IMG/VR virus record: IMGVR_UViG_2816332589_000001
Span: 64,001 to 128,000 of that record
Length of the DNA: 64,000 nt
Reading direction: 5' to 3' (one strand)
Origin: a virus
Lineage: Duplodnaviria > Caudoviricetes
A program made the translations under genes and the position numbers. Of this stretch, positions 2,140 through 41,025 are shown one piece after another. A model generated the notes under the pieces. The model was not told the DNA's origin and made no database searches. It saw nothing but the letters and a program-made list of their open reading frames with translations. Each line of letters starts with the position of its first letter. The stretch's first letter is position 1.

Positions 2140-2192
2140 GGAGCGTCCCGAGGTGCGCTCTCGCTCGTGAGCGCTCGGTCGCGGACAGCCTA
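2140..2192 (-). promoter_or_regulatory. leader element copy A (TAGGCT -10, ACGAGCGA-loop hairpin, ACGCTCC box)
   Basis: Minus strand GCGCTC-ACGAGCGA-GAGCGC, then GGGACGCTCCAGGAGG before the spdB-like start. Confidence 0.65.
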
Positions 2193-2251
2193 GATCATCT
2201 CCGAGGCCGCAGACCTGCCCCTTCCCCGCTAACACGCCAAAGGCGCACCAT

Positions 2252-3115
2252 CTACCACATTTGGGGCTTTCGCCGGTCGTTGCCGACCATGCGCAAGACC
2301 ACGGCCCGCTGCCCGACGCGAGATGCCAAGCGGTCACCGAGGACCGCCGCGACCTGGTCGAAGCTCAGGTTCGTGGTGAACAGCGTGGCCCGCCCGCTGT
2401 TGAGCCGTGCGGTGATCAGGTTTGAGGTGTGGGTGCGGACGTGATTCGTGGCGTACTCGTCCATCTCGTTACACAGGTCGTCCAGGATGAGCAGGTCGCA
2501 CCGTTCGTACCGCTCGCGCACGGAGACCGGCGTCAGACCGGCGGGCGCGTTGTTCGGCTGGAGCCACGACAGGTACATCGAGTGCGACACGAACCGCGCC
2601 ATCAGGCCGCATTCGACAGCGAAGGCGCCCGCCGCGGCGGCGGCCACCGTCTTGCCCGATCCGACGCTGCCGTGGGCGATCAGGTGCTGGATGCTGGGCC
2701 GGGCTATGTTGCGCTGCGCCTCCGGCACCTTGAGCTGGTCGCGGTTGTGCTGCCGGGTCTTGGCGAGCTCTTCGACGTACCGGCGCAGATGGTCGGGGAA
2801 CTGCTCCCCATCCAGGGCGGGCAGCCGGTACCGGGCGTAGTCTCCGTGCCCCGACAAGGCCAGGGAGTTCACCCACGCCTGCCGGAACACGTCGCGCTGG
2901 TACTCGTCGGTGCTGTCTGACCGGTCTTCGGGGTGGTCGGCCCTGGCCGGGTCCAGGCCGCGGCGCCGCAGCATCTCCGCGACGGCCGCGACGGGGTCGC
3001 CGGCGCGTACGACCTTCCGGCCTTCCGGTATCGCCGGGGCAGGCATGGTGAGGGACATCTCGTCGTTCCTCCTCTCGTCGGCCGACTGCTCAGGCGGCGT
3101 CATCGGACTCGACAC
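2252..3115 (-). CDS. DnaC/IstB-like AAA+ ATPase (helicase loader)
   Basis: Walker A GSVGSGKT, Walker B LLILDDL, TLFTTNL, RLASR, GNDRR. Confidence 0.9.
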   Translation of the reverse strand: MSSPMTPPEQSADERRNDEMSLTMPAPAIPEGRKVVRAGDPVAAVAEMLRRRGLDPARADHPEDRSDSTDEYQRDVFRQAWVNSLALSGHGDYARYRLPALDGEQFPDHLRRYVEELAKTRQHNRDQLKVPEAQRNIARPSIQHLIAHGSVGSGKTVAAAAAGAFAVECGLMARFVSHSMYLSWLQPNNAPAGLTPVSVRERYERCDLLILDDLCNEMDEYATNHVRTHTSNLITARLNSGRATLFTTNLSFDQVAAVLGDRLASRVGQRAVVLRMVGNDRRKPQMW

Positions 3116-4337
3116 CGAACACGTCGAGGTCGGGCGCGGCCGGGGCCGGCGCGGCGGACTGGGTGCCGCCTGAATCGCCCTGCATCCACTGGTCGTTGGT
3201 GAAGATCGGGGCGCGCCCGCTAGAGCCGGAACGCGGGGCGCGGACGCCTGACAGGCGTCGCAGCTCCTTGTCCAGCGCCCACTTCGTCGGTGTCCAGTCG
3301 CCGATGTTGCCCAGGGCCTGCCAGATGAGCCTGGAGTCGTAGCCTGCTGCCAGGGCCGTACGGATGCGGGTGCGCAGGTTGAGGAAGTAGCCGGTCCGCT
3401 GCCGTTCGGTGTCCGCCATCAGGGGGCCCATCCGCTTGGCGGCCACCAGCTTCTCCGCTTCCTCCCACCACTTGGTGGCGCCCTTCTGCGCCTGCTTGTC
3501 GAGTGCGATGTCCTCGGGCGTCTTGTCCTTCAAACGCTTGAGCATCCGTTCGAACTTGGCCTTCGCCGGGCCCCACTCGCCGATCTCCCGGAGCACCAGC
3601 TTGATCAGTTCCACGTCGTGGCCGGCGGCCATGGCGTCGTGGATGCGTGTGACCAGGTTGGTTCGGGCGCGCTCCCTCTGCTGCTCGGTGACGAGCGGGT
3701 GCAGATGGCCCTGATCGGTCAGGTCCTGCGCCTGCGCCCACCACTCCTCGGCGACCGTACGGGCAGCAGCCTCGACAGCGGTCTCCTGCGGCGGAGCCGC
3801 GGGTGCAGGCTGCCCCGACTTGGTATCGGTATCGGGTTCTGCTGCTTCCTGGACCTTTACCTTGCGGGGACGGCCAGGACCGCGGGAGAGCTTCTGCGCC
3901 TCTTCCTCACGGCGGTGCTTGTAGTGCTCTCCGACGTTGGTCTCGCCCTCGAAGCCAGCGGGCGGCATCTGGTGGACGAGGTAGCGGATGCCCTTGGCGC
4001 CGTTGGGCCGGGTCATCGGCTCGCGGTCGATGGCGTCGGCGTCGTCAAGCTGGTCTAGGTACTGATCGACGGACTGCTCACGGGAGAAGCCGAGGATGCG
4101 CGCAATGGTCTTGCGGGAAGGCCAGCACGAACTGTCGCCACTGGCGACGTTCACGTGCATCGCCAGCACGTTGTAGACGGCCTTCGCCTGCGGAGCCAGG
4201 ATCTTCCCCCGGTACATCGGGTGGGACTTACTGCCCGGGTACAGCGTCACCCAGTCCGGGATCATGGAGAACGGCGCTTTGCGGCCGACCACAACCTCGA
4301 ACTGCTCGTCCAGCTCGTCCATCTCGTGGCTGGTCAC
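3090..4337 (-). CDS. phage-type replication initiator with HTH domain
   Basis: AKAVYNVL...CWPSRKTIARILG winged-HTH motif; directly upstream of the DnaC-like gene. Confidence 0.75.
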   Translation of the reverse strand: MTSHEMDELDEQFEVVVGRKAPFSMIPDWVTLYPGSKSHPMYRGKILAPQAKAVYNVLAMHVNVASGDSSCWPSRKTIARILGFSREQSVDQYLDQLDDADAIDREPMTRPNGAKGIRYLVHQMPPAGFEGETNVGEHYKHRREEEAQKLSRGPGRPRKVKVQEAAEPDTDTKSGQPAPAAPPQETAVEAAARTVAEEWWAQAQDLTDQGHLHPLVTEQQRERARTNLVTRIHDAMAAGHDVELIKLVLREIGEWGPAKAKFERMLKRLKDKTPEDIALDKQAQKGATKWWEEAEKLVAAKRMGPLMADTERQRTGYFLNLRTRIRTALAAGYDSRLIWQALGNIGDWTPTKWALDKELRRLSGVRAPRSGSSGRAPIFTNDQWMQGDSGGTQSAAPAPAAPDLDVFGVESDDAA

Positions 4338-4657
4338 TGGCCCGCTCCTTCCTGAGCATCGTGCGGAGCAAGGCGGTAGGAGATCAAACGGCGGTCTTGG
4401 CGGTCGATGCGGCGCGGTTGTGCGGTCCGTTCTACGAGACCGGTGCGGACGAGCAGCGTGAGCGCCGAGCGGGCCTGATGGTGGGTCATGCCGGCGGAGG
4501 CGGCGAAGTCGTCAGTGTGGTGCCAGTCGCACACGTCGAGGTCACGCCGACGCAGATGCCGTACGAACGCGGTGAGGACCGTCGGGCTGATCCGCCGGGC
4601 GCCGACGAGGTCGGTCGCCTGGTCGATCAGCGCCAAACGGGTGTCGCTGGGGATCAC
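4334..4657 (-). CDS. small winged-HTH protein
   Basis: DFAASAGMTHHQARSALTLLVRTGLVER; overlaps the next start codon. Confidence 0.6.
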   Translation of the reverse strand: MIPSDTRLALIDQATDLVGARRISPTVLTAFVRHLRRRDLDVCDWHHTDDFAASAGMTHHQARSALTLLVRTGLVERTAQPRRIDRQDRRLISYRLAPHDAQEGAGQ

Positions 4658-4720
4658 GAAGCTTCCTTGCGGGAGGTGCCCACCCCCGTCGAAGCAGGGG
4701 TGGGCAGGACGTGCGGACGA

Positions 4721-5044: not shown

Positions 5045-6279
5045 GCCGCACCCCCGTTGATGCCGTCCGGCTCGTCGCGCAGGAGGCGCCACCGCTGAGA
5101 GTCGCGGTCCCATTTGATGTACTCGACGCCGAAGGGGTCGTAGATCATGCCGTCCGCCCCCATCCAGAAGCCGACCTCCGCGTCAACGAGGGCGTTGAGG
5201 CCATCTACAGCGCGCTGCCACGGCGAAACCGCGCCGGTGGGCTCGCCGAGATTCTCCGGCCGGACCGCGCCCCGCCGGATCTTGGACGCCAGGATCTCGG
5301 CGCCGTCCGCTCGCAACTGGTTGTCACGACTGCCGGTTGCCCGGTACTCACGTGCCTTCTTGAGCAGCCACGCGGTGATCTGTGCGTCGCGCTCGGCGGT
5401 GATCGCCTCGCGGGTAGTGGCCTGCTTCTCCAGCTCGGCGACGCGCGCCCGCAGCCGCTCCACCTCAACGGCAGGGGTGACCCGGTCGCGGGCCCACGGC
5501 CACGGGCAGTTCCCTGCCGAGTGCTCGCCGATCACGTCTACGGGGACGACGGCGTAGGCCAGGGCGTCCGCGGCCTCCACGGCGGTATCCCGCTGCCCGA
5601 TCGTGGCCGTGTGGGCGCGTCGCTCACGCTCCAGCTCAGCCCGCAGCCGGGCGTTCTCGGCCTCCAGGTCGGCGCCCGGCCGGGTGGACTCGCCCTTGCG
5701 GGTGTCCTTCCCGGCCTCGTCGGCGCGCTCCTCCAGCACCAGAGCCGCGCGGTACAGGCCCTCGCTCTGCCGCGCGCGGCCGGGCTCGGGCATCTCGTCG
5801 GCCAGCCGACGCAGGCGACGCGCCTCCTCGCGCAGCATCTCGGCGCGGCCGGTAGCGGCCTGCTGTTCCAGCTCGGCGACACGGTCCCGCAGCTCGTCGC
5901 GCTCCATCTGCGTGGCGAGCGACGCGCCGAACATGTCCTGTACCGCCGTCTGCAACTCTCGGGCTCGGGCCGCGTACCGGTCGGCCGCACTGCCGGTGGA
6001 GAGCGCGCGAGTGCGGGCCCTGCGCCAGGCGATGCAGTAGCGCTCGGCCTCGGACTCGGCGTCAAGCAGCCGACGCAGGATCGGCCTCATGTGCTCGCCC
6101 ATGTACGAGACGAGGTTCAGGCAGTAGAGGTCTTCCCACTGCGGGTGGTCGTGCTCGCGGACGTTGGTGATGATCTCGCCGAACGAGACGACGAGGTCGG
6201 TGCGGGCCGGCTTTGCGTCACCGAGGTGGGCGCCCAGTGCGGCGCGCTGCTCAGCGGAAAGAGGGGAACGGGCGCTCAT
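5041..6279 (-). CDS. phage-like coiled-coil hypothetical protein
   Basis: Start MSARSPLS overlaps the upstream stop; repeated LRxRVAELE motifs. Confidence 0.7.
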   Translation of the reverse strand: MSARSPLSAEQRAALGAHLGDAKPARTDLVVSFGEIITNVREHDHPQWEDLYCLNLVSYMGEHMRPILRRLLDAESEAERYCIAWRRARTRALSTGSAADRYAARARELQTAVQDMFGASLATQMERDELRDRVAELEQQAATGRAEMLREEARRLRRLADEMPEPGRARQSEGLYRAALVLEERADEAGKDTRKGESTRPGADLEAENARLRAELERERRAHTATIGQRDTAVEAADALAYAVVPVDVIGEHSAGNCPWPWARDRVTPAVEVERLRARVAELEKQATTREAITAERDAQITAWLLKKAREYRATGSRDNQLRADGAEILASKIRRGAVRPENLGEPTGAVSPWQRAVDGLNALVDAEVGFWMGADGMIYDPFGVEYIKWDRDSQRWRLLRDEPDGINGGAA

Positions 6280-6845
6280 TCGCCTGCCTCCAGCTCCGGC
6301 AGGGCGAAGGACTCTGCCGTCAGTTCGGGCAGGTTCTCCAGGGCCCGGTCGAGGAAGCCGAGCATGTCGTCCAGTGCCTCTTTGCCCTGGGTGTTCCACT
6401 TGGGGCTGATGCTGGTGGGCTCACCGCCCGGCTCGTAGCCGATGCCGGGAACCACTTCGCCGGTGGTGGCGTCAACGACCGTGTTCGTCTTCGCGATGTA
6501 CCGCAGGTGGCTCATCAGCGCTTCGAGGTAGGCCGGGCGAATGACGTACTGCGTCTCGCCCTTCTCGTCCGCGTAGTCGAGGAGCGCCTTCTCGTCCTCA
6601 ACGACGAACTTCGGCTTTGACACGCCCTGGGTGAACGTGGTCAGCGGCATAGAGTCCCCGGAAGGCAGGGGCAGCTTCGCCGCTGTGCTGCGCACACCCT
6701 TGGTGGACTCGATGTACGCGGCGTTCTCCCTGATCACCGCATCGCAGATGTCGGCGACGCGGGCCTTCACGCGGTAGGCCACCGCAGCCCTGAGCGCCAA
6801 GTCGCCGACACTCACGGCGTTGGGTGCGTTGTCCGTCTCGGGCAT
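6276..6845 (-). CDS. hypothetical protein, possibly Gam/Gp157-like nuclease inhibitor
   Basis: VEDEKALLDYA...VVDATTGEVVPGI resembles Gam/Gp157 C-termini; GAGAGG RBS; product call tentative. Confidence 0.55.
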   Translation of the reverse strand: MPETDNAPNAVSVGDLALRAAVAYRVKARVADICDAVIRENAAYIESTKGVRSTAAKLPLPSGDSMPLTTFTQGVSKPKFVVEDEKALLDYADEKGETQYVIRPAYLEALMSHLRYIAKTNTVVDATTGEVVPGIGYEPGGEPTSISPKWNTQGKEALDDMLGFLDRALENLPELTAESFALPELEAGE

Positions 6846-6883
6846 CGCTGGATACCTCTCTGGTTCTGCCGGTTTCCCGGCTT

Positions 6884-7011
6884 GGAGCGTGAAGGTCTGC
6901 TGCTGGTGGCCTTCCGTCGCTATGGACGGAGTGAGGCCGAAATCCGTTACACCAGACCCGGTGTGGCTGCTCGCTCGTGCGGCCACAGATCGGAACTGTA
7001 CACCACGTCCG
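6884..7011 (-). promoter_or_regulatory. leader element copy B
   Basis: CGGACGTGGTGTACAGT promoter, TGTGGCCGC-ACGAGCGA-GCAGCCACA hairpin, displaced ACGCTCC at 6884-6890. Confidence 0.7.
6918..6951 (-). promoter_or_regulatory. ECF-type promoter TGTAAC-N17-CGTC
   Basis: 27/34 identical to 53450-53483; resembles the BldN-type GTAAC/CGT consensus. Confidence 0.6.
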
Positions 7012-11637: not shown

Positions 11638-12017
11638 TGATTGCGGTCCGGAGCGTTCTGTCGCAGCCGGGCTGCGATGCTCGCGGCGATGCCTTCGAGG
11701 CGCGCATCGTCAATGCCCTCGATGTCGGCGACGGCAAGGCGCATACCCGGGCCGGCCTTGGCCTCCCGGGTATGGATGCCGGGGTCAGCGAGGTCTTCGG
11801 CGTGGTCGGCGCTGCTTTGGGGGCGGGCGCGGCGGTCGGCCTCGCGCATCATCGCGTCGAATGCGCGTGAGCGTGCGCTTTCGCTGATGGCGGGAGTGGA
11901 CCGGAGAGCGTTCGCGGCCATCACCATGCTGGTGATCTCCGGGTTTTCAGGTTCGGCGTCGCCGGACAGGCAGCGGTCAAGCTGCACTGCTGCGGCGCTA
12001 TCCCTTCGACCCAGCAT
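11634..12017 (-). CDS. putative anti-sigma factor
   Basis: Overlaps the sigma gene; AANALRSTPAISESARSRAFDAMM recalls the RsbN N-terminus. Confidence 0.55.
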   Translation of the reverse strand: MLGRRDSAAAVQLDRCLSGDAEPENPEITSMVMAANALRSTPAISESARSRAFDAMMREADRRARPQSSADHAEDLADPGIHTREAKAGPGMRLAVADIEGIDDARLEGIAASIAARLRQNAPDRNQ

Positions 12018-12705
12018 CGTTCTTCTCCCTCAGCATCACTGGCGTGGCACGGCCATCGTCCCGCGGTCCGTCCGCGGCAGACAGCAGGTACGCCGCCAAG
12101 GTGCTGTCGCGCTCTGGCATGAGAGTGCGCAGCCGGGCGAGCGCACGGTACTGCAACACGCGAATCGTACCTACTGGCTTGCCCATAATTTCCGCCGTCT
12201 CAGCGGTTGTATGCCCAGACGTGATGCGAAGAGCCAGGACAAGCTGCTGGTCGTCCGACAGTTTGTCCAGCTTTCTCCGGATGGCTTCCCCCAGCTCGTT
12301 CCACTCGGCTCTCTCCTCGGGGCCCATCTCGGTGCTCGGGTAGTCGAGCTGCCAGAAGTCGCTGGTCGGCTTCTCGAAACCCCTGTTGCGCATCGGCCGG
12401 AAATAGTCGTTGTAGACGTTGCGGGCGATCGCGAAGACCCACGCCCGGATGCCGTGGCCGTCGTAGCTGTCGATCTTCTGCACGACCTTGACGAACGTCT
12501 CCTGGGCCAAGTCCTCGGCGGTGGAGGGGTCTTGGATGCGCGCGTTCATGAAGCGAACGATCGGCTCGTACATGACGCCGAAGACCTCAGCGAGTGCCGC
12601 CTTGTTGCTCGGGTCCTTGGCAGCGCGGGCCGCGGCGGCTTCCAGGGGGCTCCCGAACTCGCCGTCGCACGACGTGGTTTTGCTCGCGCTGGGCGTGCTG
12701 GGCAT
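11998..12705 (-). CDS. ECF sigma-70 factor, BldN/AdsA-like
   Basis: AEDLAQETF, WVFAIARN, ETAEIMGKPVGTIRVLQYRAL. Confidence 0.92.
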   Translation of the reverse strand: MPSTPSASKTTSCDGEFGSPLEAAAARAAKDPSNKAALAEVFGVMYEPIVRFMNARIQDPSTAEDLAQETFVKVVQKIDSYDGHGIRAWVFAIARNVYNDYFRPMRNRGFEKPTSDFWQLDYPSTEMGPEERAEWNELGEAIRRKLDKLSDDQQLVLALRITSGHTTAETAEIMGKPVGTIRVLQYRALARLRTLMPERDSTLAAYLLSAADGPRDDGRATPVMLREKNDAGSKG

Positions 12706-28844: not shown

Positions 28845-28866
28845 GGGTGTGCCTTTCTGGTTGATG

Positions 28867-30739: not shown

Positions 30740-30741
30740 GG

Positions 30742-31380
30742 CTACGCCTCCGACGGGGCTGCGGCGAGTACGAACACGTGAAGGCACGTCACGAGCGACG
30801 GCAGACCTGCATTCCGCCATCCCTCAGCGTCGTACCGGCTGTACCGCACGTAGACCCGTCCCGCGGCCTCGTCGTACCGCACCCGGACGCGGTCATGCTC
30901 GGCGACAATCCCCGACAGCACCTGCGCGGCCTCCGCCGCGGTGATGACGCCGGGAATGTCGTATGCCGCGTCCTCGTCGTGCGCCGCGACCAGTTCCCGC
31001 ACCGGCACGAGCAACCCCGAACTCTGATGCTCGGTGACGTACTGCGCGCAGTCGTGCAGGGGCGGGAACGCGAGCAGCGTCCGGCCCGGCAGGGTGGGGC
31101 CCGGGTCGGCGGGCACGAACCGCTGCCGCGCGTCCCACTTCTCGACGGCCCGGCCCAGGGCCGCGCGCACCTCGGCGTCGGACCACCAGCCGGTGCCGTC
31201 GTCCTGGTCGTCGTTCAGCCCGTCGTACCGGGACGGCACCCATGACCCGTTGGTGCGGGTCCACACGTCCCCGGTGTGCGTCCACACGTAGCGGTCGCCA
31301 TCGGTGAAGAACAGTGGGGCGGACGGCGGGGGAAACAAGGCCGACTGCACGACCGGGGCGTTCAAGGACATGGTGGACAC
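30742..31380 (-). CDS. hypothetical protein
   Basis: GTG start after GGAG. Confidence 0.65.
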   Translation of the reverse strand: MSTMSLNAPVVQSALFPPPSAPLFFTDGDRYVWTHTGDVWTRTNGSWVPSRYDGLNDDQDDGTGWWSDAEVRAALGRAVEKWDARQRFVPADPGPTLPGRTLLAFPPLHDCAQYVTEHQSSGLLVPVRELVAAHDEDAAYDIPGVITAAEAAQVLSGIVAEHDRVRVRYDEAAGRVYVRYSRYDAEGWRNAGLPSLVTCLHVFVLAAAPSEA

Positions 31381-31510
31381 GGGGGGATCTCCAAGCGGTG
31401 AGTACGGGTACGGCGGGGCGCGGTGCGCCCTGCTCACGGCCGTGACGGGCACGGCCGAGGGGAGGGAGCAGCGGGCCGGCCGGGGCGGGGACGGGCCGCC
31501 CCGGGCGGGG

Positions 31511-31957
31511 TCAGCGAAGGACGAACGAGAGCCACGCGGGCACGTGCAGCGGGCGAACGGACCGCTGGTTGGCGGAGAGCCGCAGTTCCTCGGCCAGCTC
31601 CCCCAGCTCGGCGCCCGACGCCTCGAAGTCGTCATGGCCACCGACAAGGCTCAGGGCTTCGGCTCGGGACGGCTCGGTGCGGAACGCGGACACGGTGAAC
31701 ACGCGGAAGCGGATGGCGGCGGAAGACCAGCCACCAGGCTCGACGCGGCTGTTCATGCTCGTGCTGCCGAACACGATCCGGTCGCCCCACTGGAGATCCG
31801 CGCCGGTCGGCGGAGCCCAGGCAACCCCGTACGGGGGCGGAGCCTCGATCAGGCGGCGGTGAGCGTCGCTGGCGCTGCGGGGGACGTAGAAGGCGGACAC
31901 GCGGGGGATGCTGGTCACGGGATGCTCCAGGAGAGGGACGCCGGGGCGCGCGCTCAC
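31511..31957 (-). CDS. hypothetical protein
   Basis: 148-aa ORF co-oriented in the array. Confidence 0.55.
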   Translation of the reverse strand: MSARPGVPLLEHPVTSIPRVSAFYVPRSASDAHRRLIEAPPPYGVAWAPPTGADLQWGDRIVFGSTSMNSRVEPGGWSSAAIRFRVFTVSAFRTEPSRAEALSLVGGHDDFEASGAELGELAEELRLSANQRSVRPLHVPAWLSFVLR

Positions 31958-31979
31958 ACGCCCCGGCCGGATGGCGGAC

Positions 31980-33065
31980 TCAGATGCGGAACAGCGCCTC
32001 GGCCACGGCGCGGCGACGCTCCCCGTCGGAGCCCAGCGGGAAGTACCGCACCGGGCCGGCCGTCCCGTCCTCGGCGACGCGCAGGACCTCCACGGCCCCG
32101 TACGGGCCTTCCACGAGCGGCGGCGTCACAGCGAACAGGTACGTCGCGGAACCAATGCGGCGGGCCCACTCCCACCCGCTCTCGGGCATCGGCTGACGCA
32201 TCCCGACGACGAACAGCCCGTACGCCCGTGCGGCCTCCACCAGGGCGCGCCGGACCTCGTACAGAGCCTGATACGGGATGGCGCGCCGCACGGCCGTCGT
32301 GAACTCCGTCATGGCCTTGTCCAGGGCCCGCCCGTCGCCCGTGCCGTTGATGGCTGCGCCGAGCGTTCGCAGGGCTTCCAGACCGCTGAGGAACGCGCGG
32401 TCCCAGGCGCGGCGCTCCGCAGACGCGATCCATGTGCGCTGCTCGGCAGGGTCCTCGAACCGCTTACCGACCCTGCTGCCGCACTCCGAGGTGAGGAGCA
32501 CGACGGCCCGCACGGCGGGGTGGTCCATCGTGGCGCCGTCCGGCTCATGCAGGAACCGGGACACGGCGTGCTCCACATCGGCCAGCAGCGCCCATTCAGC
32601 ACGGTTCTTCGCGTGCCGCACTGCGGCCTCAGCGTTCGCTAGTGCCGCATCGAACGGGCCGCGCCGGTCGGCGGAGCCCTGCTCGGGGTGCAGGGACGTC
32701 AGAACGCGTTCCAGAGCGACCAGGGTCTCCTCACACGCGCGGTCCTCCGCAGCGCGTACGGCGGACTGCCCGGCGGTGATCAGCGAACGCATCGGCTCCA
32801 CCCGGGCCCGGGAGTAGTTCGGCCCGGCGATGTACTCCCACGGGCCCACGGCGCGCCAGCCGTTGGCCTGCAACAGGTCGTCGGGACCGATGCGGCGGCT
32901 GTTCGGGACGTACGGAGCGGTGAACCGGGCTATGGGTTCCGGGCTCTGCTGGGGAACGATGATCGTCACCCAGTTCTCGCGGCGGGCGCCCTCCTTACGG
33001 CTGGTGACCTGTACGGCGTGCTGGAACTCGGCGAAGTAGCGGACGGCGGGTACGGCGGTGCTCAT
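31980..33065 (-). CDS. hypothetical protein
   Basis: MSTAVPAV start after GGAG. Confidence 0.7.
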   Translation of the reverse strand: MSTAVPAVRYFAEFQHAVQVTSRKEGARRENWVTIIVPQQSPEPIARFTAPYVPNSRRIGPDDLLQANGWRAVGPWEYIAGPNYSRARVEPMRSLITAGQSAVRAAEDRACEETLVALERVLTSLHPEQGSADRRGPFDAALANAEAAVRHAKNRAEWALLADVEHAVSRFLHEPDGATMDHPAVRAVVLLTSECGSRVGKRFEDPAEQRTWIASAERRAWDRAFLSGLEALRTLGAAINGTGDGRALDKAMTEFTTAVRRAIPYQALYEVRRALVEAARAYGLFVVGMRQPMPESGWEWARRIGSATYLFAVTPPLVEGPYGAVEVLRVAEDGTAGPVRYFPLGSDGERRRAVAEALFRI

Positions 33066-33163
33066 GGCGGAGTTCTCCAAGGGGCTTACGGAATGTGGAT
33101 GGGGGCGGGTGGAGCACTGGGCCGGCGGGGCGCGCCGGACGGGCGCGCCCCGGGCCGGGCAGA

Positions 33164-33757
33164 TCAGTTGGGGGTAACGCTGGAAGCGATCGCGAGCACG
33201 ACGGCCGTCAGCAGCGGCTCGATCGCGGCGTAGTCGGGGGCGTCGGCGGGGATGTACGCGTACGTGCCGGTGCCCGCGGGGAGGCGGACCCAGATCACGC
33301 CGGTCTCCGTCTGGCTCATCTCCCAGTCCCGGGGGAACCTCTTGATCGACGGGGCATCCACGGTGCGCTGCCCCGGCCCCCACGGTCCGGGCGCCGTGTC
33401 GTCCATCTCCGGCAGGGGCACGACCGCGTTGGACGATGGGCCCTTGGTACCGGCCAGCAGGTACGCGCGGCCCTGCTCGAACGGCATCTCGCCGTCGCGC
33501 ACCGGGCGCCCGGGAAGCGGGTCATCGGCGCCAACGGACGCCGGGGTGAACAGCGGCACTCCAGCCTCTGCGAGAAACGGCGGGTGGGTGAACATCTTCC
33601 GTATCTCCTCGTCGGTGAAGGCGGCCGGGCAATCGGCGCAGCACGTCCAACGCCCTTCCTCGGACCGGGTGTGCGCCGTACCGAGCACGGTGACGCGGTC
33701 ACCGGCCGCGAACGCGGCGGGCACGTGGGGCATGACGGACGGGAGCAGCAACGACAC
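33164..33757 (-). CDS. hypothetical protein
   Basis: GTG start after GGAG; CxxC. Confidence 0.65.
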   Translation of the reverse strand: MSLLLPSVMPHVPAAFAAGDRVTVLGTAHTRSEEGRWTCCADCPAAFTDEEIRKMFTHPPFLAEAGVPLFTPASVGADDPLPGRPVRDGEMPFEQGRAYLLAGTKGPSSNAVVPLPEMDDTAPGPWGPGQRTVDAPSIKRFPRDWEMSQTETGVIWVRLPAGTGTYAYIPADAPDYAAIEPLLTAVVLAIASSVTPN

Positions 33758-33950
33758 GGGAACTCCAGAGCAGTGAGAAGAACGAGGCGGGCGGATGATG
33801 GCCCGCAGGGCTCGCTTACGGCGCGCCCCGCACACGGCCGCGACGGCGGGCGGCACGGCCGAGAGCAGGAAGCGGCGGGATGAGGGCTCCGTCGGCCCCC
33901 GCACCGCCCCGCGACACGGCGCCGCGGGACGATGCGGAAGCGACGGCCGA

Positions 33951-34721
33951 CTAGCGGAAGAACCTGACGACTTCCGACGCGGTCAGTGGTCCCGCTCCCC
34001 TGCGCTCGCCGTCCACCTCGCTTTGGACGAAGAACCGCAGCCGGGTGTGTGCGGGGCAAAGCGGGTTCTCCAACCGCCGCCGGACGATCCACGAGATGCG
34101 ATGGGTGTCCGTGTCCACGCGAAGCGCTCCCCGCGCGTCCGGGTAGGGCAGGGTCCGCATACCTGCCTTGCTCAGCAGGCCCGCCAGGTGCGCCATGTCC
34201 TTAGCCACGGCATCCGGCGCGTACTCCGGGCTCTGCGGCTCACCCATGTACGAGCGGCACGCCACGGTGTAGCGGCGCCCGTGGTGCGATGCCGGCTGGC
34301 TGCACATCTCGCACCGAGGATTCGCCGGAGTGTCCGGGCGCGGCTCGACATCGAACTTGTCGCACGCCGTGGCGTTCGGGTTGTGGTGCTCGCTTTCCCA
34401 CTGGCCGCACGTTCCGCACGTCGGCGTCCGGGGCGTAGGAAGCGGCCGGGCCTCTTGCACCATCCCGTGGAACGTGCCGGACGCGTAGGTGAACCCGACG
34501 GTCCTGCTCACGTCGTCCATGGAGAGCGCACCGCCGCACTCAATGGCGTTGATCAGCATGGCCCGCAGCAGCGCACCGGACATGCGGCGCGGGTTGGGCG
34601 TACCGGGCACGAGGGCGGACGCGGGTGACGCAGTGACGGAGTACGCCGCGAACGTCACCTCGGCCACGTCGGTGAGCGGCCGGAACATCGCGGACCGCTC
34701 ATCATCACGAACAGCAGACAC
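33951..34721 (-). CDS. Cys/His-rich hypothetical protein
   Basis: Two CxxC-x5-H..C units. Confidence 0.65.
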   Translation of the reverse strand: MSAVRDDERSAMFRPLTDVAEVTFAAYSVTASPASALVPGTPNPRRMSGALLRAMLINAIECGGALSMDDVSRTVGFTYASGTFHGMVQEARPLPTPRTPTCGTCGQWESEHHNPNATACDKFDVEPRPDTPANPRCEMCSQPASHHGRRYTVACRSYMGEPQSPEYAPDAVAKDMAHLAGLLSKAGMRTLPYPDARGALRVDTDTHRISWIVRRRLENPLCPAHTRLRFFVQSEVDGERRGAGPLTASEVVRFFR

Positions 34722-35011
34722 AGGAACTCCCAGAAGACGGAGGGACTGAAGAGACCGGAGAAACCGGGGCAGACACCAGCCGGACGGGCGCGCACGAGGG
34801 GTTGCCGTGAGACCAGAGAGCAACGCTCTGACCAGCGAAAAGGAACATTCGTGGAACCGGTGAGACCGTTCTACGCGTGCGCGCGGGGGCTGGGGTCGCA
34901 TCGGTGGTCCGGGCGCCGTACTGCGACCGCCGGGGGGCAGCTGCCGCAGTACGGGGCGCGGAGCACCGTGCCGGCCGGGGGCACGCCGGGGTGGGCGCGC
35001 CCCCGGGCGGG

Positions 35012-35779
35012 TCAGCCGCGCTTGATACGGACGGTGATCCGGTTGCGGTAGCGGTTGAAGCGGTGGCGGGTGCGGAACTTGAAGTTCTGCCAGTTCGGCG
35101 TACGGCGCCACTGGAGGTAGGCGACGCGGGCGCGGGTCAGGGGGCGCAGTACGGCGGGTGTCGCGGCGTCGTAGCCGTTGTAGCCGTTGTAGACCTCGCG
35201 GAGGATCGCGGCGGCCGCAACGCGTGGTGAGGCGGCGGAGGGGGCAATGACGCCGGGCATGGAGGTCCAGCCGTCGTTGGCGTACAAATCCCTGGTGGCC
35301 ATGAACCAGTCGCCGTCAAAGCCCTGGTAGGCGTAGTACTCCTCGCGGCCGTTGGTGATGGTGAGCCCGTAGCTCTCGCTCCCGACCGTGCTGGTGTACA
35401 CATCAAGGTGTCCGGCCCGGATGATTTCTGCCTCCGTCCGGCGGAGGGCGGCGCGGTCCAGGCTGTGGCGGGTGTGGAAGGCGGCTACCCGCCGCTCCCC
35501 TGCGGCCCACCGGTCGCGGTCTTCGTACTGGTAGCCAGCAGCTACGGCCAGATCGAGGATCTTGCCCGCGTGGGTGATGCCGTCTTCGTCTTTGGGGGCG
35601 AGTGGGGTCCACACGGTGGCGCGGATGTTGGTGTACCAGGTGTCGTCTTGGTCCGGTTCGGTGTCGGTCATGGTGACCGTGTCGATTCGGCCGTCGGGGT
35701 GCTGCGTGATCGTCAGGTACAGGGGGTCGGCGTTCTCGACGGCGGGGGTGTCGGTGGGCTTGTCCAGGCTGACGGGCAT
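35012..35779 (-). CDS. hypothetical protein, first gene of the leftward array
   Basis: 255-aa ORF after leader copy E. Confidence 0.75.
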   Translation of the reverse strand: MPVSLDKPTDTPAVENADPLYLTITQHPDGRIDTVTMTDTEPDQDDTWYTNIRATVWTPLAPKDEDGITHAGKILDLAVAAGYQYEDRDRWAAGERRVAAFHTRHSLDRAALRRTEAEIIRAGHLDVYTSTVGSESYGLTITNGREEYYAYQGFDGDWFMATRDLYANDGWTSMPGVIAPSAASPRVAAAAILREVYNGYNGYDAATPAVLRPLTRARVAYLQWRRTPNWQNFKFRTRHRFNRYRNRITVRIKRG

Positions 35780-35803
35780 GAGTGTCCCTTTGGTGGTTGG
35801 TGT

Positions 35804-35866
35804 GGAGCGTTGGTGTTGGCCGGATCGCTCGTTCCGACCAACAAGCAGAACTGTACACCACGTCCC
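35804..35866 (-). promoter_or_regulatory. leader element copy E
   Basis: GGGACGTGGTGTACAGT..GTTGGTCGGA-ACGAGCGA-TCCGGCCAACACCAACGCTCC. Confidence 0.8.
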
Positions 35867-35957
35867 GCGATGCGCAACACCGGGTCCATTTCTCCCGGCC
35901 CTATAGGGGGTATGACTACCGCCCTTCGGACGTGGTTGTCAGTTTGTGCCGTGGTCA

Positions 35958-36022
35958 TGTAGTGTGGTGCTCGCACCGAACGGCGCAGACGGAACGAGCA
36001 CCCGTACCGCGCCGAACGCTCC
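35958..36022 (+). promoter_or_regulatory. leader element copy F (divergent variant)
   Basis: TGTAGTGT -10; CGGCGC.ACGG-AACGAGCAC-CCGT.GCGCCG then AACGCTCC. Confidence 0.6.
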
Positions 36023-36044
36023 CAACCAGCCTTAGGGGACCTCT

Positions 36045-36374
36045 GTGTCTGCTGCCGCCGAACGCCGCGCCCGCCGCCGCAACGCCGCCGCCGTACTCCG
36101 CAACCGCCGCCGGGTGAACCGGACGCACACCGTGAAGCCCTTCCTGCGCTTCCTCGGATACGAGCCGGAGTTCGTTGACCGCTACGCCTCTCCGTTCGGC
36201 AAGCACGTGGTGAAGGCGTACCGCGCCCAGCACGACGGTGCCGACCCGGCCACCCGCCTCAAGCGCATCAACGGCCGCCTGCGCCCCGTGTACGTGTACG
36301 CCCCCGGCGACCCGGCCCTGACCGTCGCGCTCAACACCTACAGGCGCACCGCTGAGTACGCCCCCGCCGCGTAG
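36045..36374 (+). CDS. basic hypothetical protein, first gene of the rightward array
   Basis: 109-aa Arg-rich ORF after AGGGG RBS. Confidence 0.7.
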   Translation: MSAAAERRARRRNAAAVLRNRRRVNRTHTVKPFLRFLGYEPEFVDRYASPFGKHVVKAYRAQHDGADPATRLKRINGRLRPVYVYAPGDPALTVALNTYRRTAEYAPAA

Positions 36375-36441
36375 CCCTTCCCCCACCCCCCGGGGCGCGG
36401 CACCCGCCGCGCCCCACCCTCCCCCGATCGGAGAACCCCTG

Positions 36442-36846
36442 ATGAAGCTGCCCTTCACCTGCCGTGCCCGCGCCGCTGTGGCTGCCGCCGTGGCGACCGG
36501 ACTGCTTGCCGTGGCCGCGTCGCTCACCACCTTCTACGACGGCGTGAACGCCGGGGCGACCGTCGGCACGCCCGGGTGTTCCGTCGGTGTCGAGTGGCGC
36601 GGTGACCCGGGCGTGTTCGGCTCGTGCACCGGCACGGACCCGGACGCCGGGGCCGACCAGGGCGACGAGATCGTGACGGCGTACAACGACGGTTTCCTGG
36701 ACGGACAGGCGGACGTGCACGAGGGCGGCGGCCGTGACGCGCACGAGGCCGGCATGGGGGCGGGCGCCAAGTCGGGTGATGCGGCCGTGACCGCGTACAA
36801 CGACGGATTCCTGGACGGACAGGCTGACGCGCGAGTGCGCCGCTGA
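36442..36846 (+). CDS. secreted/membrane protein with duplicated VTAYNDGFLDGQAD motif
   Basis: N-terminal hydrophobic segment; 14-aa internal repeat. Confidence 0.7.
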   Translation: MKLPFTCRARAAVAAAVATGLLAVAASLTTFYDGVNAGATVGTPGCSVGVEWRGDPGVFGSCTGTDPDAGADQGDEIVTAYNDGFLDGQADVHEGGGRDAHEAGMGAGAKSGDAAVTAYNDGFLDGQADARVRR

Positions 36847-36887
36847 CCCGCTGGTGGGGGAGGGGCGCTCCGGGGCCCCTTCCCCAC

Positions 36888-36950
36888 CGGACACGGTTCA
36901 CAGTTTTCCCTGTTGGCCCGCACGAGCGGGCGGCGCCAACACCACGCTCC
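36888..36950 (+). promoter_or_regulatory. leader element copy G
   Basis: CGGACACGGTTCACAGT..GTTGGCCCGC-ACGAGCGG-GCGGCGCCAACACCACGCTCC. Confidence 0.75.
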
Positions 36951-36972
36951 AACCCAACCGAAAGGCATACCC

Positions 36973-37740
36973 GTGCCCGTCATCGACGCCGCGTTCTACC
37001 CGCTGATCATCACCAACCGGCCCACTGAGTACCCGTACGCGGCTCCGCCCGTCGGTACCGACATGAGTGCGCTGCGTCTGCTGCCCGCGTCCGAGGTGCG
37101 CGCCGGTGACCTGGTACTTGGCGCCTACGACGGCCCGGTGTCCCCCGGCAAGCTGCGCACCGCCAACCAGTCCGCCGCCGCGTTCACCGCGCTGCCCCTG
37201 CCCATGCACGGCGTCATCTGCCTCGATGGCGAGACACCGCTTTGGGAGCGCGACGAGCCGACTTTGGTCATCCCCCGCGAGTACCGCCCGTCCGCCCCGT
37301 ACGCCGTTGGCGACCTCGTGGAGCGCCCCGTTCTGTACACCCCGACGGACTACAGCGGCCGGTACCGGCCCGGAGAGACCGTTGCCGTCCTCCAGCGCGG
37401 CACCGTGACCGCCGTGGAAGACGGCTCCGTGAGCATCCAGTGGCTTGGCGACTGGCTCACCTGCGAAGACCCGGCGACCGGGTTCCGCCGCGTCGATCCC
37501 GTGCGCATCGAACGGGAGCGCGCCGTGTCCGGCTTCGCGGTAGGCGACCGCGTGACGCTGCCCGGCGGCACGTCCACGGGCGTGGTGATGGAACTGTGGC
37601 CGCGCTGGCTCGACGGCCGCACCACGGCGCGCGTGTGGTGGCCGCCCACCTCGGCTTCGGACAACAGCCGTGGCCGCCACCGGATGTACGAGCCGTACCA
37701 CATCGAGCACGCCGTTCCCGCCGCGTCCGCCACCCGCTGA
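36973..37740 (+). CDS. hypothetical protein
   Basis: GTG after GAAAGG; VRAGDLV, YAVGDLV and FAVGDRV beta-barrel-like motifs. Confidence 0.7.
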   Translation: MPVIDAAFYPLIITNRPTEYPYAAPPVGTDMSALRLLPASEVRAGDLVLGAYDGPVSPGKLRTANQSAAAFTALPLPMHGVICLDGETPLWERDEPTLVIPREYRPSAPYAVGDLVERPVLYTPTDYSGRYRPGETVAVLQRGTVTAVEDGSVSIQWLGDWLTCEDPATGFRRVDPVRIERERAVSGFAVGDRVTLPGGTSTGVVMELWPRWLDGRTTARVWWPPTSASDNSRGRHRMYEPYHIEHAVPAASATR

Positions 37741-37758
37741 CCCCATGCCGGCCCGGGG
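37741..37758 (+). repeat. intergenic repeat CCCCATGCCGGCCCGGGG copy 1
   Basis: Directly follows the TGA; identical at 38195 and 39236, variant at 42860. Confidence 0.8.
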
Positions 37759-37810
37759 CGCCCCGGGCCCCCTTCCCCGCTCAACTCCCACCAGAAAGGC
37801 GCCATCAGCC

Positions 37811-38194
37811 ATGCCCGGATACGCCCCCGCCACCGTCGAAACCGTCTCCATCCCCCTGCCGAACGTCACCGTCCGCCGCCCGCTCAAGCGCGGCGACGAC
37901 TACCGCTTGGAACTGGGCGCGGTCATCGCCCGCGGCTCCACCCTGGCCGCCGCCCGCGCCGATCTGGCACGCCAACTCGGCCTCACCTCCGAGACCGTGC
38001 ACACCGACCCCGGGTTCGCGCGGGCCGACGACAACGGTGACTTCCTGGTCGTGCTCGATCGCCCGTGGGGACTCGACTCGTACCTGATCACCGACGCGGG
38101 CCACAGGCTCATCGGCACCAGCAACCGCGACCGCACCCCCGCCGAGGACGCCGCCGCGAACCGGGGTTTCACCGTCATCCCGCCGCGCCGCTGA
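37811..38194 (+). CDS. hypothetical protein
   Basis: ATG after GAAAGG. Confidence 0.7.
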   Translation: MPGYAPATVETVSIPLPNVTVRRPLKRGDDYRLELGAVIARGSTLAAARADLARQLGLTSETVHTDPGFARADDNGDFLVVLDRPWGLDSYLITDAGHRLIGTSNRDRTPAEDAAANRGFTVIPPRR

Positions 38195-38212
38195 CCCCAT
38201 GCCGGCCCGGGG
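38195..38212 (+). repeat. intergenic repeat CCCCATGCCGGCCCGGGG copy 2
   Basis: Directly follows the TGA. Confidence 0.8.
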
Positions 38213-38285
38213 CGCGGAGGCCGCGCCCCGGGCCACAAACCCCGCCGCTCTGGCACCCTCCCCGAACTCCCGAAAGGAACAGCTC

Positions 38286-39215
38286 ATGACCACGGCCCCG
38301 GCCCCACTGCACCCCACCGGCACCGACGGGACGCCCCCGGGCATCCAGCTCTTCACCGTCGAAGGAACCGCGTACGGCCCGTACGTCGGGCTCCCCACGT
38401 CGGACACGTGGGGGCCGTACTCCGCGCACCTGTTCACCCGCGCGACCGCCGAACTGATCGTGAACGATCTGCACCGCGATGAGAGCAGCCTCCGGGCCGC
38501 GTTCGATCCCGAGACCGGCACGCTCACGTTCACCGACGAAGACGACGAGATGGAGCCCGAGACCGTCATCCCGGACGCGTACGGCCGGTACCTGATCGGC
38601 GGCCTGTGGCCGTGGAATGACTGGGACGACAAGGACATCCCGCACACCGCCGGGCAGGCCGCGTTCGCGCGGGGCGCGGTCGAGTACCGGGAGGCTGACG
38701 CCTCCGCGTCGCTTCCCGAACCGCTGGATGCCCTCTACCAGCGGGGCCGCCAGGAGGCGCAGCTGCTCACCCGCGAACGCGCGGAGCACCGGGGCGTGCT
38801 CTTCGACATCGACCCGTCCCGTACGCCGCTGATCGTCCGTTCCCGCCCGACGAACCACCACTTCGCGGCTCTGCCGCCCGGGGCGTACGAGTCGGCCGCC
38901 CGGCCCATGCTCGCCCGCGACGTGCGCGCCGGTGACCTGGTGGTTGCGTCGTTCGCGTCGTTCCCCACCCCCGGCCGCACGACTCAGGGGACGACGTGGG
39001 TGAAGTCCCCGTACGTCGCCGACCCACGCCCGGAAAACCCCGACTGCCGGTGCACACCGTGCCGCATAGGCCGGGAGGTGTGCGGGCCCGGTCCGCGCGT
39101 CGCGCTCTCCGCGCCCGAGAACACCCACTGGGGCGCGGAGTGCGATGTGTGGGAGGCGGACGAACCGGTGTTCGTCATCCCTGCCGCGCTGCTGCTGCTC
39201 CCCGTCTCCGAGTGA
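38286..39215 (+). CDS. hypothetical protein
   Basis: ATG after GAAAGGA; C-terminal domain paralogous to the N-terminus of 36973-37740. Confidence 0.7.
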   Translation: MTTAPAPLHPTGTDGTPPGIQLFTVEGTAYGPYVGLPTSDTWGPYSAHLFTRATAELIVNDLHRDESSLRAAFDPETGTLTFTDEDDEMEPETVIPDAYGRYLIGGLWPWNDWDDKDIPHTAGQAAFARGAVEYREADASASLPEPLDALYQRGRQEAQLLTRERAEHRGVLFDIDPSRTPLIVRSRPTNHHFAALPPGAYESAARPMLARDVRAGDLVVASFASFPTPGRTTQGTTWVKSPYVADPRPENPDCRCTPCRIGREVCGPGPRVALSAPENTHWGAECDVWEADEPVFVIPAALLLLPVSE

Positions 39216-39235
39216 CCGCCCGCCGTGTCCCCGGG

Positions 39236-39253
39236 CCCCATGCCGGCCCGGGG
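39236..39253 (+). repeat. intergenic repeat CCCCATGCCGGCCCGGGG copy 3
   Basis: Inside a larger CCGTGTCCCCGGGCC/GGCCCGGGGACACGG hairpin. Confidence 0.8.
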
Positions 39254-39280
39254 ACACGGGCCCCGCAGAAGGAACCCGCC

Positions 39281-39544
39281 ATGCCCCGCCTGACCCGCAA
39301 GCAGCAGTCTCAGCTCGATGACATCGAGCACTTCCTGAACCTGGCGCTCACCTATCTGGCCAACGACCGGAACGTTGTGGCCATGAAGTCCGCCGGGGCC
39401 GCCACCACCGAATTCCATAACGCGCGCTCCGGTGAGTGGATCGTGCCCGTCCAGCCGACCTCCCTACGCGCCTACCTCAACCACGCGCAGCGCGCCGTTG
39501 AAGCGATGCGCAGCGATGCCACCTCGAACGGGGGCAAGCAGTGA
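39281..39544 (+). CDS. hypothetical protein
   Basis: MPRLTRKQQ after GAAGGA. Confidence 0.65.
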   Translation: MPRLTRKQQSQLDDIEHFLNLALTYLANDRNVVAMKSAGAATTEFHNARSGEWIVPVQPTSLRAYLNHAQRAVEAMRSDATSNGGKQ

Positions 39545-40164
39545 GCGCCGCCCCGTACGCGATCGGCCGCCCGCTCGACGCCGACCGGGCCGCGTACGCA
39601 CTGTCCAACGCGGACCGCGACCGCGCCGCGGTGCCCGTGTCCGGCGCCGTGGTCCGTTCGCTGCTCGCCTCCGTACTGCACTGCGGCGGGGCCGCCGCCC
39701 TGGAGCCCGGCACCGGCGCGGTGACCCTGTCGTGGCCGCAGATCGGCGGCATGGTCCCCGGCGTTCTCGGGCCGGTCTACGTGGCCGTTCCGTGCGAGCG
39801 GCCCGCGCGTACGCCGTGCTGCGCCCGGTGCGGGCACTGGCGCGCTGAGCATGACCACCCGAGCGTGCCCACCGCCTGTACGCGGTACCGGCTGAGCATC
39901 GGCCCGGCCCGCTACGCCGTGCCGGAGCACGACGGCGTGACGTACGCGTGGGTCCGCCGGATGGGCCGCACTCGCATTCGCTTCGAGATCACCGAGCCGA
40001 CGGCCGCGCACCCGGACGGCGTGCTCTCTGTGCACCGTCTTCCCGCCCCGGGGGACGGCCCGTACGACTACTGCGCCCACTACGCGCCGATCCCGCCCGG
40101 CCGCCGCACCGATGTGCTGGAGCGCGCCCGCGCCCGCGTCCACCCCCAGCCCTGCGAGTCCTGA
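39541..40164 (+). CDS. hypothetical protein
   Basis: GTGA overlap; CARCGH..EH..C. Confidence 0.65.
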   Translation: MSAAPYAIGRPLDADRAAYALSNADRDRAAVPVSGAVVRSLLASVLHCGGAAALEPGTGAVTLSWPQIGGMVPGVLGPVYVAVPCERPARTPCCARCGHWRAEHDHPSVPTACTRYRLSIGPARYAVPEHDGVTYAWVRRMGRTRIRFEITEPTAAHPDGVLSVHRLPAPGDGPYDYCAHYAPIPPGRRTDVLERARARVHPQPCES

Positions 40165-40215
40165 CCGAGGACCGTGATCAGCCACTTCTACGACGCCTGA
40201 CCCCTTGGAGTCTCC

Positions 40216-40953
40216 ATGCCCCCGATCTTCCTCGCCGACCGCGAGACCATCGTTCACCACTTTCCGCACGGCCCCGTGCGGTTGCGCAAGTACGCGGCCC
40301 GGGGCGGGGGGCGAGAGTTCGTGCGCGCGTCCGTCCCGGCCCGCGTGCCGACCCGCGACGGGGGTCGGGCGGCCCTGGTGACGCTGCGCCCGGCCGCGTA
40401 CCCGTACGCCGGAAGGTGGCTGGCTGCCATCGTCCAGTACGCGCCGGAGCGCGCCGACCACCGCAATCCGGCTTTTGCGCCCGGGTCGGTGCGAGTGCTG
40501 GCCCGGATGACGCGGACGCACGCCAACGGGGTGCCCCGGCAGTCGGATGGGTCGGTGGGCTGGAGTGTGCCCGGTGCGTCCGCCCGGGTATGGCCGGACG
40601 GGCGGGTGGAGGTGCGCGATGCCGGCCTGGTGGTTCTGTCCGTGCGGCTGGAGGGTTCGGCGTGGGATTCGGCGCGGGTGGCCGCCGTGGCGGACGCCGG
40701 GTTGCGGTTGCTGTGCGCGCCGGAGGCCCGGCATCTGATCCGTACGTCGGAGCCGCGCGGATGGTCGAAGCCTGCGGACCGGTGGGGTAAGGGGGGCCCG
40801 GACACAGTGGGGGTCAACGGCGGGTGGACGTACGACGGGTCGTCGGTGGGCGCCTGCTCGTGCGGGTGGCGGGTGAGCGTGCCGTCCCGGGATGGGGCGC
40901 GCGGCGCTGCGGCTGAGCATCTGCGGGAAGTGGGAGTTGGCGTTCCCGCCTGA
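40216..40953 (+). CDS. hypothetical protein
   Basis: ATG after GGAG; C-terminal CSCGW..AAEH. Confidence 0.7.
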   Translation: MPPIFLADRETIVHHFPHGPVRLRKYAARGGGREFVRASVPARVPTRDGGRAALVTLRPAAYPYAGRWLAAIVQYAPERADHRNPAFAPGSVRVLARMTRTHANGVPRQSDGSVGWSVPGASARVWPDGRVEVRDAGLVVLSVRLEGSAWDSARVAAVADAGLRLLCAPEARHLIRTSEPRGWSKPADRWGKGGPDTVGVNGGWTYDGSSVGACSCGWRVSVPSRDGARGAAAEHLREVGVGVPA

Positions 40954-40960
40954 CCACGCT

Positions 40961-41025
40961 CGGACGTGGTGTACAGTTTTCCTTGTTGGTCCGGCACGAG
41001 CGAGCCGGACCAACACCAACGCTCC
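40961..41025 (+). promoter_or_regulatory. leader element copy H
   Basis: CGGACGTGGTGTACAGTTTTCCTTGTTGGTCCGGC-ACGAGCGA-GCCGGACCAACACCAACGCTCC (perfect 11-bp stem). Confidence 0.85.

Follow-up and report, generated by a model that had tools for sequence, protein, structure and literature searches.

A conserved, undescribed leader with a variable stem, a fixed loop and a fixed box in front of many genes of a phage-plasmid

We analyzed a stretch of 64,000 nucleotides (nt), called the window here, which comprises bases 64001-128000 of a single IMG/VR virus record of 136,928 base pairs (bp; G000), and studied a short leader module that recurs in front of its genes. The record has overlapping ends, is labelled as having direct terminal repeats and being 100% complete, and shows a G+C content of about 70%. 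Its closest annotated relative is NZ_CP107821.1, a circular plasmid of 132.6 kb from Streptomyces sp. NBC_00536, which encodes a major capsid protein, a portal protein, ParA/ParB, a sigma factor, WhiB, ERF, FtsK and a helicase-family protein of 5,248 amino acids. Because this relative plasmid carries capsid, portal and ParA/ParB genes, we concluded that G000 is a phage-plasmid (circular, about 137 kb), the non-structural part of which is spanned by the window. A megablast search of the phage collection gave no match.

The module is composed of a hairpin with a stem of changing sequence, an apical loop of fixed sequence and, 3' of the hairpin, the box ACGCTCC. Eleven copies were detected in the element, nine within the window and two outside, all of them sense-oriented and located directly before a ribosome-binding site (RBS). 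The initial annotation had listed eight copies of the window (A to H); each was recovered at its place and in sense orientation to the next gene (8/8), and a ninth (copy I) was added. Shine-Dalgarno sequence is abbreviated as SD in the following list.

224-303 (module 249-303), minus strand: copy I, hairpin 261-294, loop ACGAGCAA 274-281, box ACGCTCC 252-258, ATG 224-226; downstream of the gene 353-790(-) and upstream of a gene leaving the window
2123-2192, minus strand: copy A, TAGGCT 2187-2192, hairpin 2148-2178 (GCGCTC/GAGCGC core), loop ACGAGCGA 2161-2168, box 2140-2146 adjoining the SD AGGAGG, GTG 2123-2125; lacks the GGACGTGG promoter word
6843-7010, minus strand: copy B (long form), promoter word 6994-7010 (TACAGT 6995-7000), hairpin about 6962-6987 (TGTGGCCGC/GCAGCCACA), loop 6971-6978, then an insert of about 62 nt with a second hairpin, box 6884-6890, ATG 6843-6845; its first gene has a weak Mu Gam-like match
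27847-27934, minus strand: copy C, promoter word 27918-27934, hairpin 27881-27913, loop 27894-27901, box 27874-27880, ATG 27847-27849; at the head of an operon of about eight genes reaching to about 21546
28842-28927, minus strand: copy D, promoter word 28911-28927, hairpin 28874-28906, loop 28887-28894, box 28867-28873, GTG 28842-28844; leads a single gene (28032-28844), followed by a hairpin and then by the promoter of copy C
35777-35865, minus strand: copy E, promoter word 35849-35865, hairpin 35814-35843 (closing A-U), loop 35825-35832, box 35804-35810, ATG 35777-35779; the leftward arm of a divergent control region
35928-36047, plus strand: copy F, variant promoter word 35928-35944, second -10 TAGTGT 35960-35965, hairpin 35981-36014 (CGGCGC..ACGG / CCGT..GCGCCG), loop AACGAGCAC 35993-36001, box 36016-36022, GTG 36045-36047; directly 5' of the gene P0001
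36889-36975, plus strand: copy G, promoter word 36889-36905 (CACAGT 36899-36904), hairpin 36911-36941, loop ACGAGCGG 36922-36929, box 36944-36950, GTG 36973-36975
40962-41049, plus strand: copy H, promoter word 40962-40978, hairpin 40984-41015 (12 pairs, -23.8 kcal/mol), loop 40996-41003, box 41019-41025, GTG 41047-41049; at the head of a rightward operon of at least seven genes

The two copies outside the window, at 133419-133471(-) and 130768-130818(-) of G000, were located with a covariance model built from 29 copies; the latter has the box TCGCTCC. Copy I has equivalents at 3629-3683(-) of L008, 7444-7496(+) of L009 and 12981-13035(+) of L015, and its equivalent in the relative plasmid precedes a gene annotated as ERF. 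The long form of copy B is orthologous in the same three loci, in which the second hairpin of the insert (6891-6961(-), ctccgtc...gacggaag) is likewise conserved.

The eight-nucleotide loop ACGAGCGA is identical in six of the eight listed copies, with variants in copies F and G only, and the box follows the hairpin in all eight, as the initial annotation had described. From loop start to box start the distance is 21-23 nt in the listed copies and 88 nt in copy B, where the box is displaced, and the box ends 14-38 nt before the start codon. Taken singly, the two words are unremarkable: seven matches of ACGAGCGA were counted against 4.2 expected, a number reached by 16 of 100 shuffles, and 19 matches of ACGCTCC against 18.8 expected. 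The combination ACGAGC-N13-18-ACGCTCC, however, gave eight matches against 0.04 expected, which no shuffle out of 100 attained, and these eight are seven of the listed copies plus copy I. Thus, the loop-box combination is far above chance, whereas either word alone is at chance level.

The stems behave differently from the loop and the box. With the loop held open they pair in every window copy (10-15 pairs, -15.7 to -23.8 kcal/mol), and every copy of the module folds with 8-13 pairs, or with 14-16 in the long form when flanking pairs are counted. An alignment of 30 copies from five elements revealed changes on both sides in nine of the ten stem pairs, 76.5% of the stem cells being paired. This bore out the claim that the stems vary in sequence and nevertheless remain paired. 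The covariation score, which counted the whole structure (the stem and a proposed loop-box helix) on an alignment fitted to the model structure, amounted to 0.189 compared with 0.068 +/- 0.012 in shuffles (0/500 reached it) and 0.053-0.132 in slid controls. Without recourse to the alignment, no fewer than five unrelated stems surround the same loop (GTTGG..CCAAC, TGTGGC..GCCACA, GCGCTC/GAGCGC, ACGG(GG)/(CC)CCGT and GGCGC/GCGCC), and in a plain MAFFT alignment invariant columns occur only in the loop and the box.

In seven of the nine window copies, 5-8 nt separate the first paired base of the stem from a -10-like hexamer (TACAGT, CACAGT or TAGGCT) upstream of it. In copy F the hexamer ends 15 nt before the stem, and in front of copy I none was found within 32 nt. 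In most copies the hexamer belongs to a longer promoter word, GGACRYGGTKYACAGTT, for which ten matches with at most three mismatches were counted against 1.2 expected. Three of these promoters (325+, 13018+ and 52300+) have no hairpin module. Conversely, copies A and I lack the promoter word and, like several copies of plasmid NZ_CP107821.1, lie behind TAGGCT-type or unrecognized promoters. Since there are promoters without the module and modules behind other promoters, the promoter word and the leader module are separable.

Some of the promoter-word copies without module deserve mention in their own right. The one at 325-341(+), GGACACGGTTGTCAGTT, is aimed into the 3' end of the gene 353-790(-), so that an antisense transcript would result; it has equivalents in L008 (3707+) and L009 (7422-). 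The others reside at 13018-13034(+) and 52300-52316(+). The leader at 52300 contains another conserved hairpin (aggacgaacggctagggg...cccctgcc), shared with L005.

The initial annotation had proposed that the loop (GAGCG) and the box (CGCUC), which are complementary, form an H-type pseudoknot and that the folded knot is the functional unit. A complementarity of 4-5 nt is indeed found in every copy of most elements, the spacing is tightly kept, and the long form bears its 62-nt insert between stem and box, as the connecting loop of a pseudoknot could. However, a second helix of loop and box is not maintained in the homologues. Compensatory changes were seen at none of the five pairs: four are invariant and hence uninformative either way, while the fifth is G-C in 14 cells, an unpaired A.C in 13 and gapped in three, that is, unpaired in 13 of the 27 cells with letters. 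In three of the four copies of L033 the central A-U pair is broken by the box AACGCCC(C), the loop being unchanged, and in NZ_CP107821.1 and L008 the loop is ACGAGCAA throughout next to an unchanged box. Moreover, in all copies other than the long form the box begins 0-4 nt after the stem, leaving 1-5 nt to cross 8-13 bp. According to the geometry of the A-form helix (Pleij) this is too short, unless the lower stem opens; judged by this length rule, the connecting loop would not span the first stem. In a homologous sister module, described below, loop and box are not complementary at all. We therefore abandoned the pseudoknot, which we think is very unlikely; if complementarity is its sole ground, it should stay out of RNA-motif catalogues.

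The module was encountered in ten elements, namely G000, NZ_CP107821.1, three IMG/VR contigs, four genome contigs and the Streptomyces genome G024. A search with the promoter word yielded the three IMG/VR contigs (59-134 kb), and a search with the family of P0001 yielded eight genome loci, four of which contain the module. Among 151 Streptomyces genomes G024 was the only one with several matches to the module model R1; there, loop ACGAGCGA and core CGCTCC are retained in all five copies, which follow another promoter variant. Six other genomes of this set gave one weak R1 match each and on inspection did not contain the module. The bare loop-box string occurs in at least 120 stretches of IMG/VR, almost all of them chance occurrences, and among the loci listed for this string R1 matched one of 80, weakly (E = 1.7e-4). 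Judged from these searches, the module is restricted to one phage-plasmid lineage. Rfam 15 gave no match at gathering score in the whole window; in E-value mode, the region 35700-37050 returned only CRISPR-DR28 on the opposite strand, with 17.4 bits instead of the required 35 (E = 6.3). This agrees with the earlier impression that the motif belongs to none of the described families. No description of it was found in the literature, supplementary files lying outside the search. The module is thus a conserved, undescribed leader.

Three further loci of the P0001 family (L026, L027 and L030) harbor a sister module, which is homologous yet distinct. Its order is promoter GTTCGTACTGTAYGGTTTTCC, a hairpin of about 10 bp with the loop NCACAGCGAA, then the box CCACACAC and the SD; all 14 copies are foldable. 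Such a change of loop and box within the same architecture is, in our reading, what a recognition site would show that drifts along with its reader.

The sense orientation, the position between -10 and RBS, the complementary arms that are not conserved in sequence and the variable loop-box spacing point to a role at the level of the transcript. Over the relatives, the loop-to-box distance is 19-24 nt, and 88-90 nt in the long form, a variation not easily reconciled with a rigid site on double-stranded DNA. We are about half persuaded that a hairpin at the 5' end of the RNA serves as a scaffold offering the loop and the adjacent box to some factor. Each copy would be the 5' leader of an early transcription unit (replication, recombination, control). 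Host RNA polymerase would start a few bases after a -10 of the TACAGT or TAGGCT type, and the RNA would open, within about 0-8 nt in most copies, with a hairpin of 8-13 bp whose stem is free to drift. On top of it would stand the fixed loop ACGAGC-R-N and, 0-4 nt after the stem, the fixed single-stranded box (A)CGCUCC, followed by a C/A-rich stretch and the RBS. The stem may then act both as a structural scaffold and as a 5'-terminal cap against decay that depends on the 5' end, while loop and box, not being pseudoknot partners, would provide two sequence-specific contacts for a single factor acting in trans, most probably one of the element's own proteins. Such a factor could handle the early transcripts as one regulon after initiation, by control of stability, translation or elongation.

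Two variants in which the box acts on the RBS were rejected. As an anti-SD partner the box fits poorly, as the SDs differ (GAAAGG, GGAGG, AAGGGGA) and the box of copy A adjoins the SD. A translational operator tied to the RBS is unlikely, given that the start codon follows the box at distances of 14-38 nt.

Several points weigh against a scaffold RNA read by a factor. The site of transcription start, the action at the RNA level and the factor itself, including its nature, are inferences. Sense and antisense hairpins are equally stable (20 versus 20 of 40, p = 0.32), and internal G.U pairs outnumber A.C mismatches by only 14 to 4 in copies that are not independent of each other. The alignment behind the covariation score, being fitted to the model structure, favors pairing. 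As copy F and some copies of the relatives lie 15-17 nt from the -10 and copy I is devoid of a recognizable -10, a strictly 5'-terminal cap is not valid for all copies. The element-wide variants of loop and box (ACGAGCAA throughout NZ_CP107821.1 and L008, AACGCCC in three of the four L033 copies), which we otherwise count in favor of a reader, could stem from gene conversion between copies instead of co-evolution with it. Finally, the structural neighbors of P0001, the regulator candidate encoded behind copy F, are of antirepressor type. A looser count of 41 G.U against 5 A.C had been considered as proof of RNA by strand asymmetry and was dismissed when it failed the stricter test.

As to the genes behind the repeats, most have no Pfam family; the exceptions are an IstB-like ATPase, a serine recombinase, a DUF6884 protein and the weak Mu Gam-like match. 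Regulators and intergenic hairpins of relevance for the alternatives are:

36045-36374, plus strand: P0001, 109 amino acids, first gene 3' of copy F
36847-36890, 42817-42850, 44041-44075 and other gaps: GC-rich intergenic hairpins, terminator-promoter cassettes

P0001 consists of an Arg-rich N-terminal helix and a conserved C-terminal domain. Its family comprises 38 representatives, mostly with Ala-Ala at the end. Pfam and PHROG gave no match for P0001. The predicted model (pLDDT 89) matched no solved fold, the best Foldseek hit having E = 0.59 and the best VIA-align hit Z = 4.4 with a root-mean-square deviation of 3.3 over 69 residues; the neighbors in the ESM Atlas were Bro-N, P22_AR_N, pRha/Rha and KilA-N. 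An N-like nature of the protein appears doubtful, given the missing family or solved-fold match and the antirepressor-type neighbors, and P0001 is treated as a candidate regulator only. In G000, a NusG paralogue (PF02357) and a Q protein (PF06530) gave no matches while the controls matched, other Q families not being part of the search. The element encodes one sigma factor gene.

The GC-rich hairpins (10-20 bp, without U-tracts) reside directly 3' of stop codons, often just before the next promoter. That strong hairpins lie between the downstream genes was correctly noted in the initial annotation; the support for antitermination it drew from them is weakened, as comparable hairpins exist across the element. 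In total, 234 clusters of strong hairpins are dispersed over the whole of it. Consequently, we dropped the idea that such hairpins are a peculiarity of module-led operons, equally strong ones being frequent elsewhere. Canonical terminators were not enriched in 21001-41000 (5 found, 4.5 expected).

As candidate roles, the initial annotation had put forward antitermination, protection of the 5' end and a switch. One alternative is processive antitermination similar to lambda nut, in which the hairpin would correspond to boxB and the box to boxA, and a phage factor together with host Nus proteins would join RNA polymerase at the leader and take it through the GC-rich hairpins found behind almost every gene. 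The lambda N/nut and rrn boxB-boxA systems share with the module the promoter-proximal hairpin, a conserved loop, a stem conserved in pairing only, a short single-stranded box and, for the phage, the location in early operons; lambda boxA even has the same pentamer CGCUC. A conserved loop on a covarying stem near the promoter is exactly what we found, here beside a fixed box and ahead of operons of up to about eight genes, with strong hairpins in nearly all intergenic gaps of the module operons. One copy is apparently internal to an operon, like nutR, and the protein encoded after copy F possesses the Arg-rich helix. The loop word of the sister module, CACAGCGA, moreover recurs unaltered as a conserved block in Streptomyces rrn leaders, although by our own estimate (p about 0.01-0.05 after four motifs) this similarity may be due to chance. 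On the other hand, matches to NusG and Q are absent, so that, apart from the N-like candidate P0001 with its antirepressor-like domain, no homologue of N, Q or NusG was found in the element. The loop of 8-9 nt is not a GNRA-like pentaloop, and eleven copies with promoters of their own contrast with one nut site per early operon. Nor does the box resemble a host boxA. The block common to the rrn leader and the 16S-23S spacer of Streptomyces genomes is TTGAGAACT-N2-ACAG, which we take to be the host boxA; the module box is unlike it, and ACGCTCC was present in none of six rrn leaders examined. Several units are short (copy D leads one gene, copy F two) and have their own promoter after a hairpin, which suggests insulated units and not read-through, and equally strong hairpins are found all over the element. 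Altogether, we regard antitermination as unlikely. A special form of it, for which we see little prospect, would cast the module and its sister (with loop NCACAGCGAA and box CCACACAC) as an actinobacterial equivalent of nut, mimicking the host rrn-leader hairpin ACACAGCGAGGACGCUGUGAAC and recruiting host elongation or rRNA-leader factors, possibly with an Arg-rich protein of the P0001 family, so that early operons would receive a termination-resistant polymerase. If true, high-GC Gram-positive phages would thereby have their first described leader system of the N/nut-like or rrn-mimicking kind.

A site acting as DNA, i.e. loop and box or the palindrome as an asymmetric repressor site of operator or stoperator type that silences the early promoters in the plasmid state, is in our opinion distinctly unlikely. 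Its position overlapping +1 to +50 of the presumed promoters, the strand test without favor to RNA, the inverted repeat of GAGC and GCTC about two helical turns apart and the resemblance of P0001 to DNA-binding antirepressor domains count in its favor. The P1 C1 operators and the L5 stoperators offer precedents: many dispersed early promoters share one short asymmetric word oriented with transcription (stoperators are mentioned in PMC3203893). These sites, however, are double-stranded DNA without a covarying hairpin, and no double-stranded binding site needs stem arms that are unconserved but complementary. The spacing of 19-24 bp, extended to 88-90 bp in the long form, speaks against it as well, and as an operator, the conserved word 5' of the -10, with its distribution independent of the module, would be the better candidate. 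Extremely improbable, finally, is a passive repeat, a promoter-leader cassette copied and homogenized by recombination, the loop and box of which have no function beyond an open, well-translated 5' end. The near-identity of the canonical copies over about 90 nt within an element and the element-wide variants would suit this explanation; yet loop and box are retained exactly even where promoter and stem are unrelated, and no other columns are invariant across the ten elements.

By our comparison, the closest described analogue in actinophages is the SAS/ESAS of Cluster K mycobacteriophages. According to its description (PMC3203893), this actinophage-specific repeat of unknown function is present in many copies, all in one orientation, just 5' of some of the non-structural genes; a host or phage RNA or protein has been suggested to bind it. 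It resembles the module in joining a short asymmetric conserved word to an upstream inverted repeat. In PMC3203893, SAS is given as the 13-bp word GGGATAGGAGCCC, which overlaps the SD at the start of translation, whereas the module box lies 14-38 nt before the start codon, and ESAS has 17-bp arms with a consensus and a varying spacer, whereas in the module the arms vary and the loop is fixed. Measured against this account (PMC3203893), the module does not belong to SAS/ESAS, as word and geometry differ and the sequences are unrelated.

Stabilizer hairpins at 5' ends, such as that of the ompA leader, share with the module a stable stem within a few nucleotides of the 5' end, which for the module is a predicted one; in contrast, stabilizers need neither a fixed loop nor a 3' box. 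The put RNA of HK022 is a larger two-stem element that acts without a protein. Like the module on the RNA reading, put is a cis-acting nascent leader RNA at the start of phage early operons (PMC9378689).

The regulation of large Streptomyces phage-plasmids is essentially uncharted, and most genes behind the leaders have no recognizable family. A portable module on about eleven transcription units, recurring in ten elements, may provide a direct experimental handle on the early regulon. If its factor acts on RNA, the leader would represent a new class of cis-regulatory RNA for actinomycetes and a candidate expression part for Streptomyces, and the sister module could serve as natural material for specificity swaps.

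Some further observations were made. The gene 11998-12717(-) gave the sole sigma-70 region-2 match of the element and is not preceded by the leader module. In the Streptomyces rrn leaders (L034 150-215; L166-L169) a conserved hairpin, ACACAGCGAGGACGCTGTGAAC, is followed by GTTCCGCTCTCGTG. This hairpin contains the sister loop word CACAGCGA in four of six leaders, one further leader having ACACTAGCGA, and its arms resemble the loop and box of the module family, a lead that may reflect chance. In L031 (Streptomyces parvus, 5790-5880), a gene of the P0001 family without the leader module is preceded by three copies of the palindrome TGTGGCCACA, an arrangement similar to a DNA operator.

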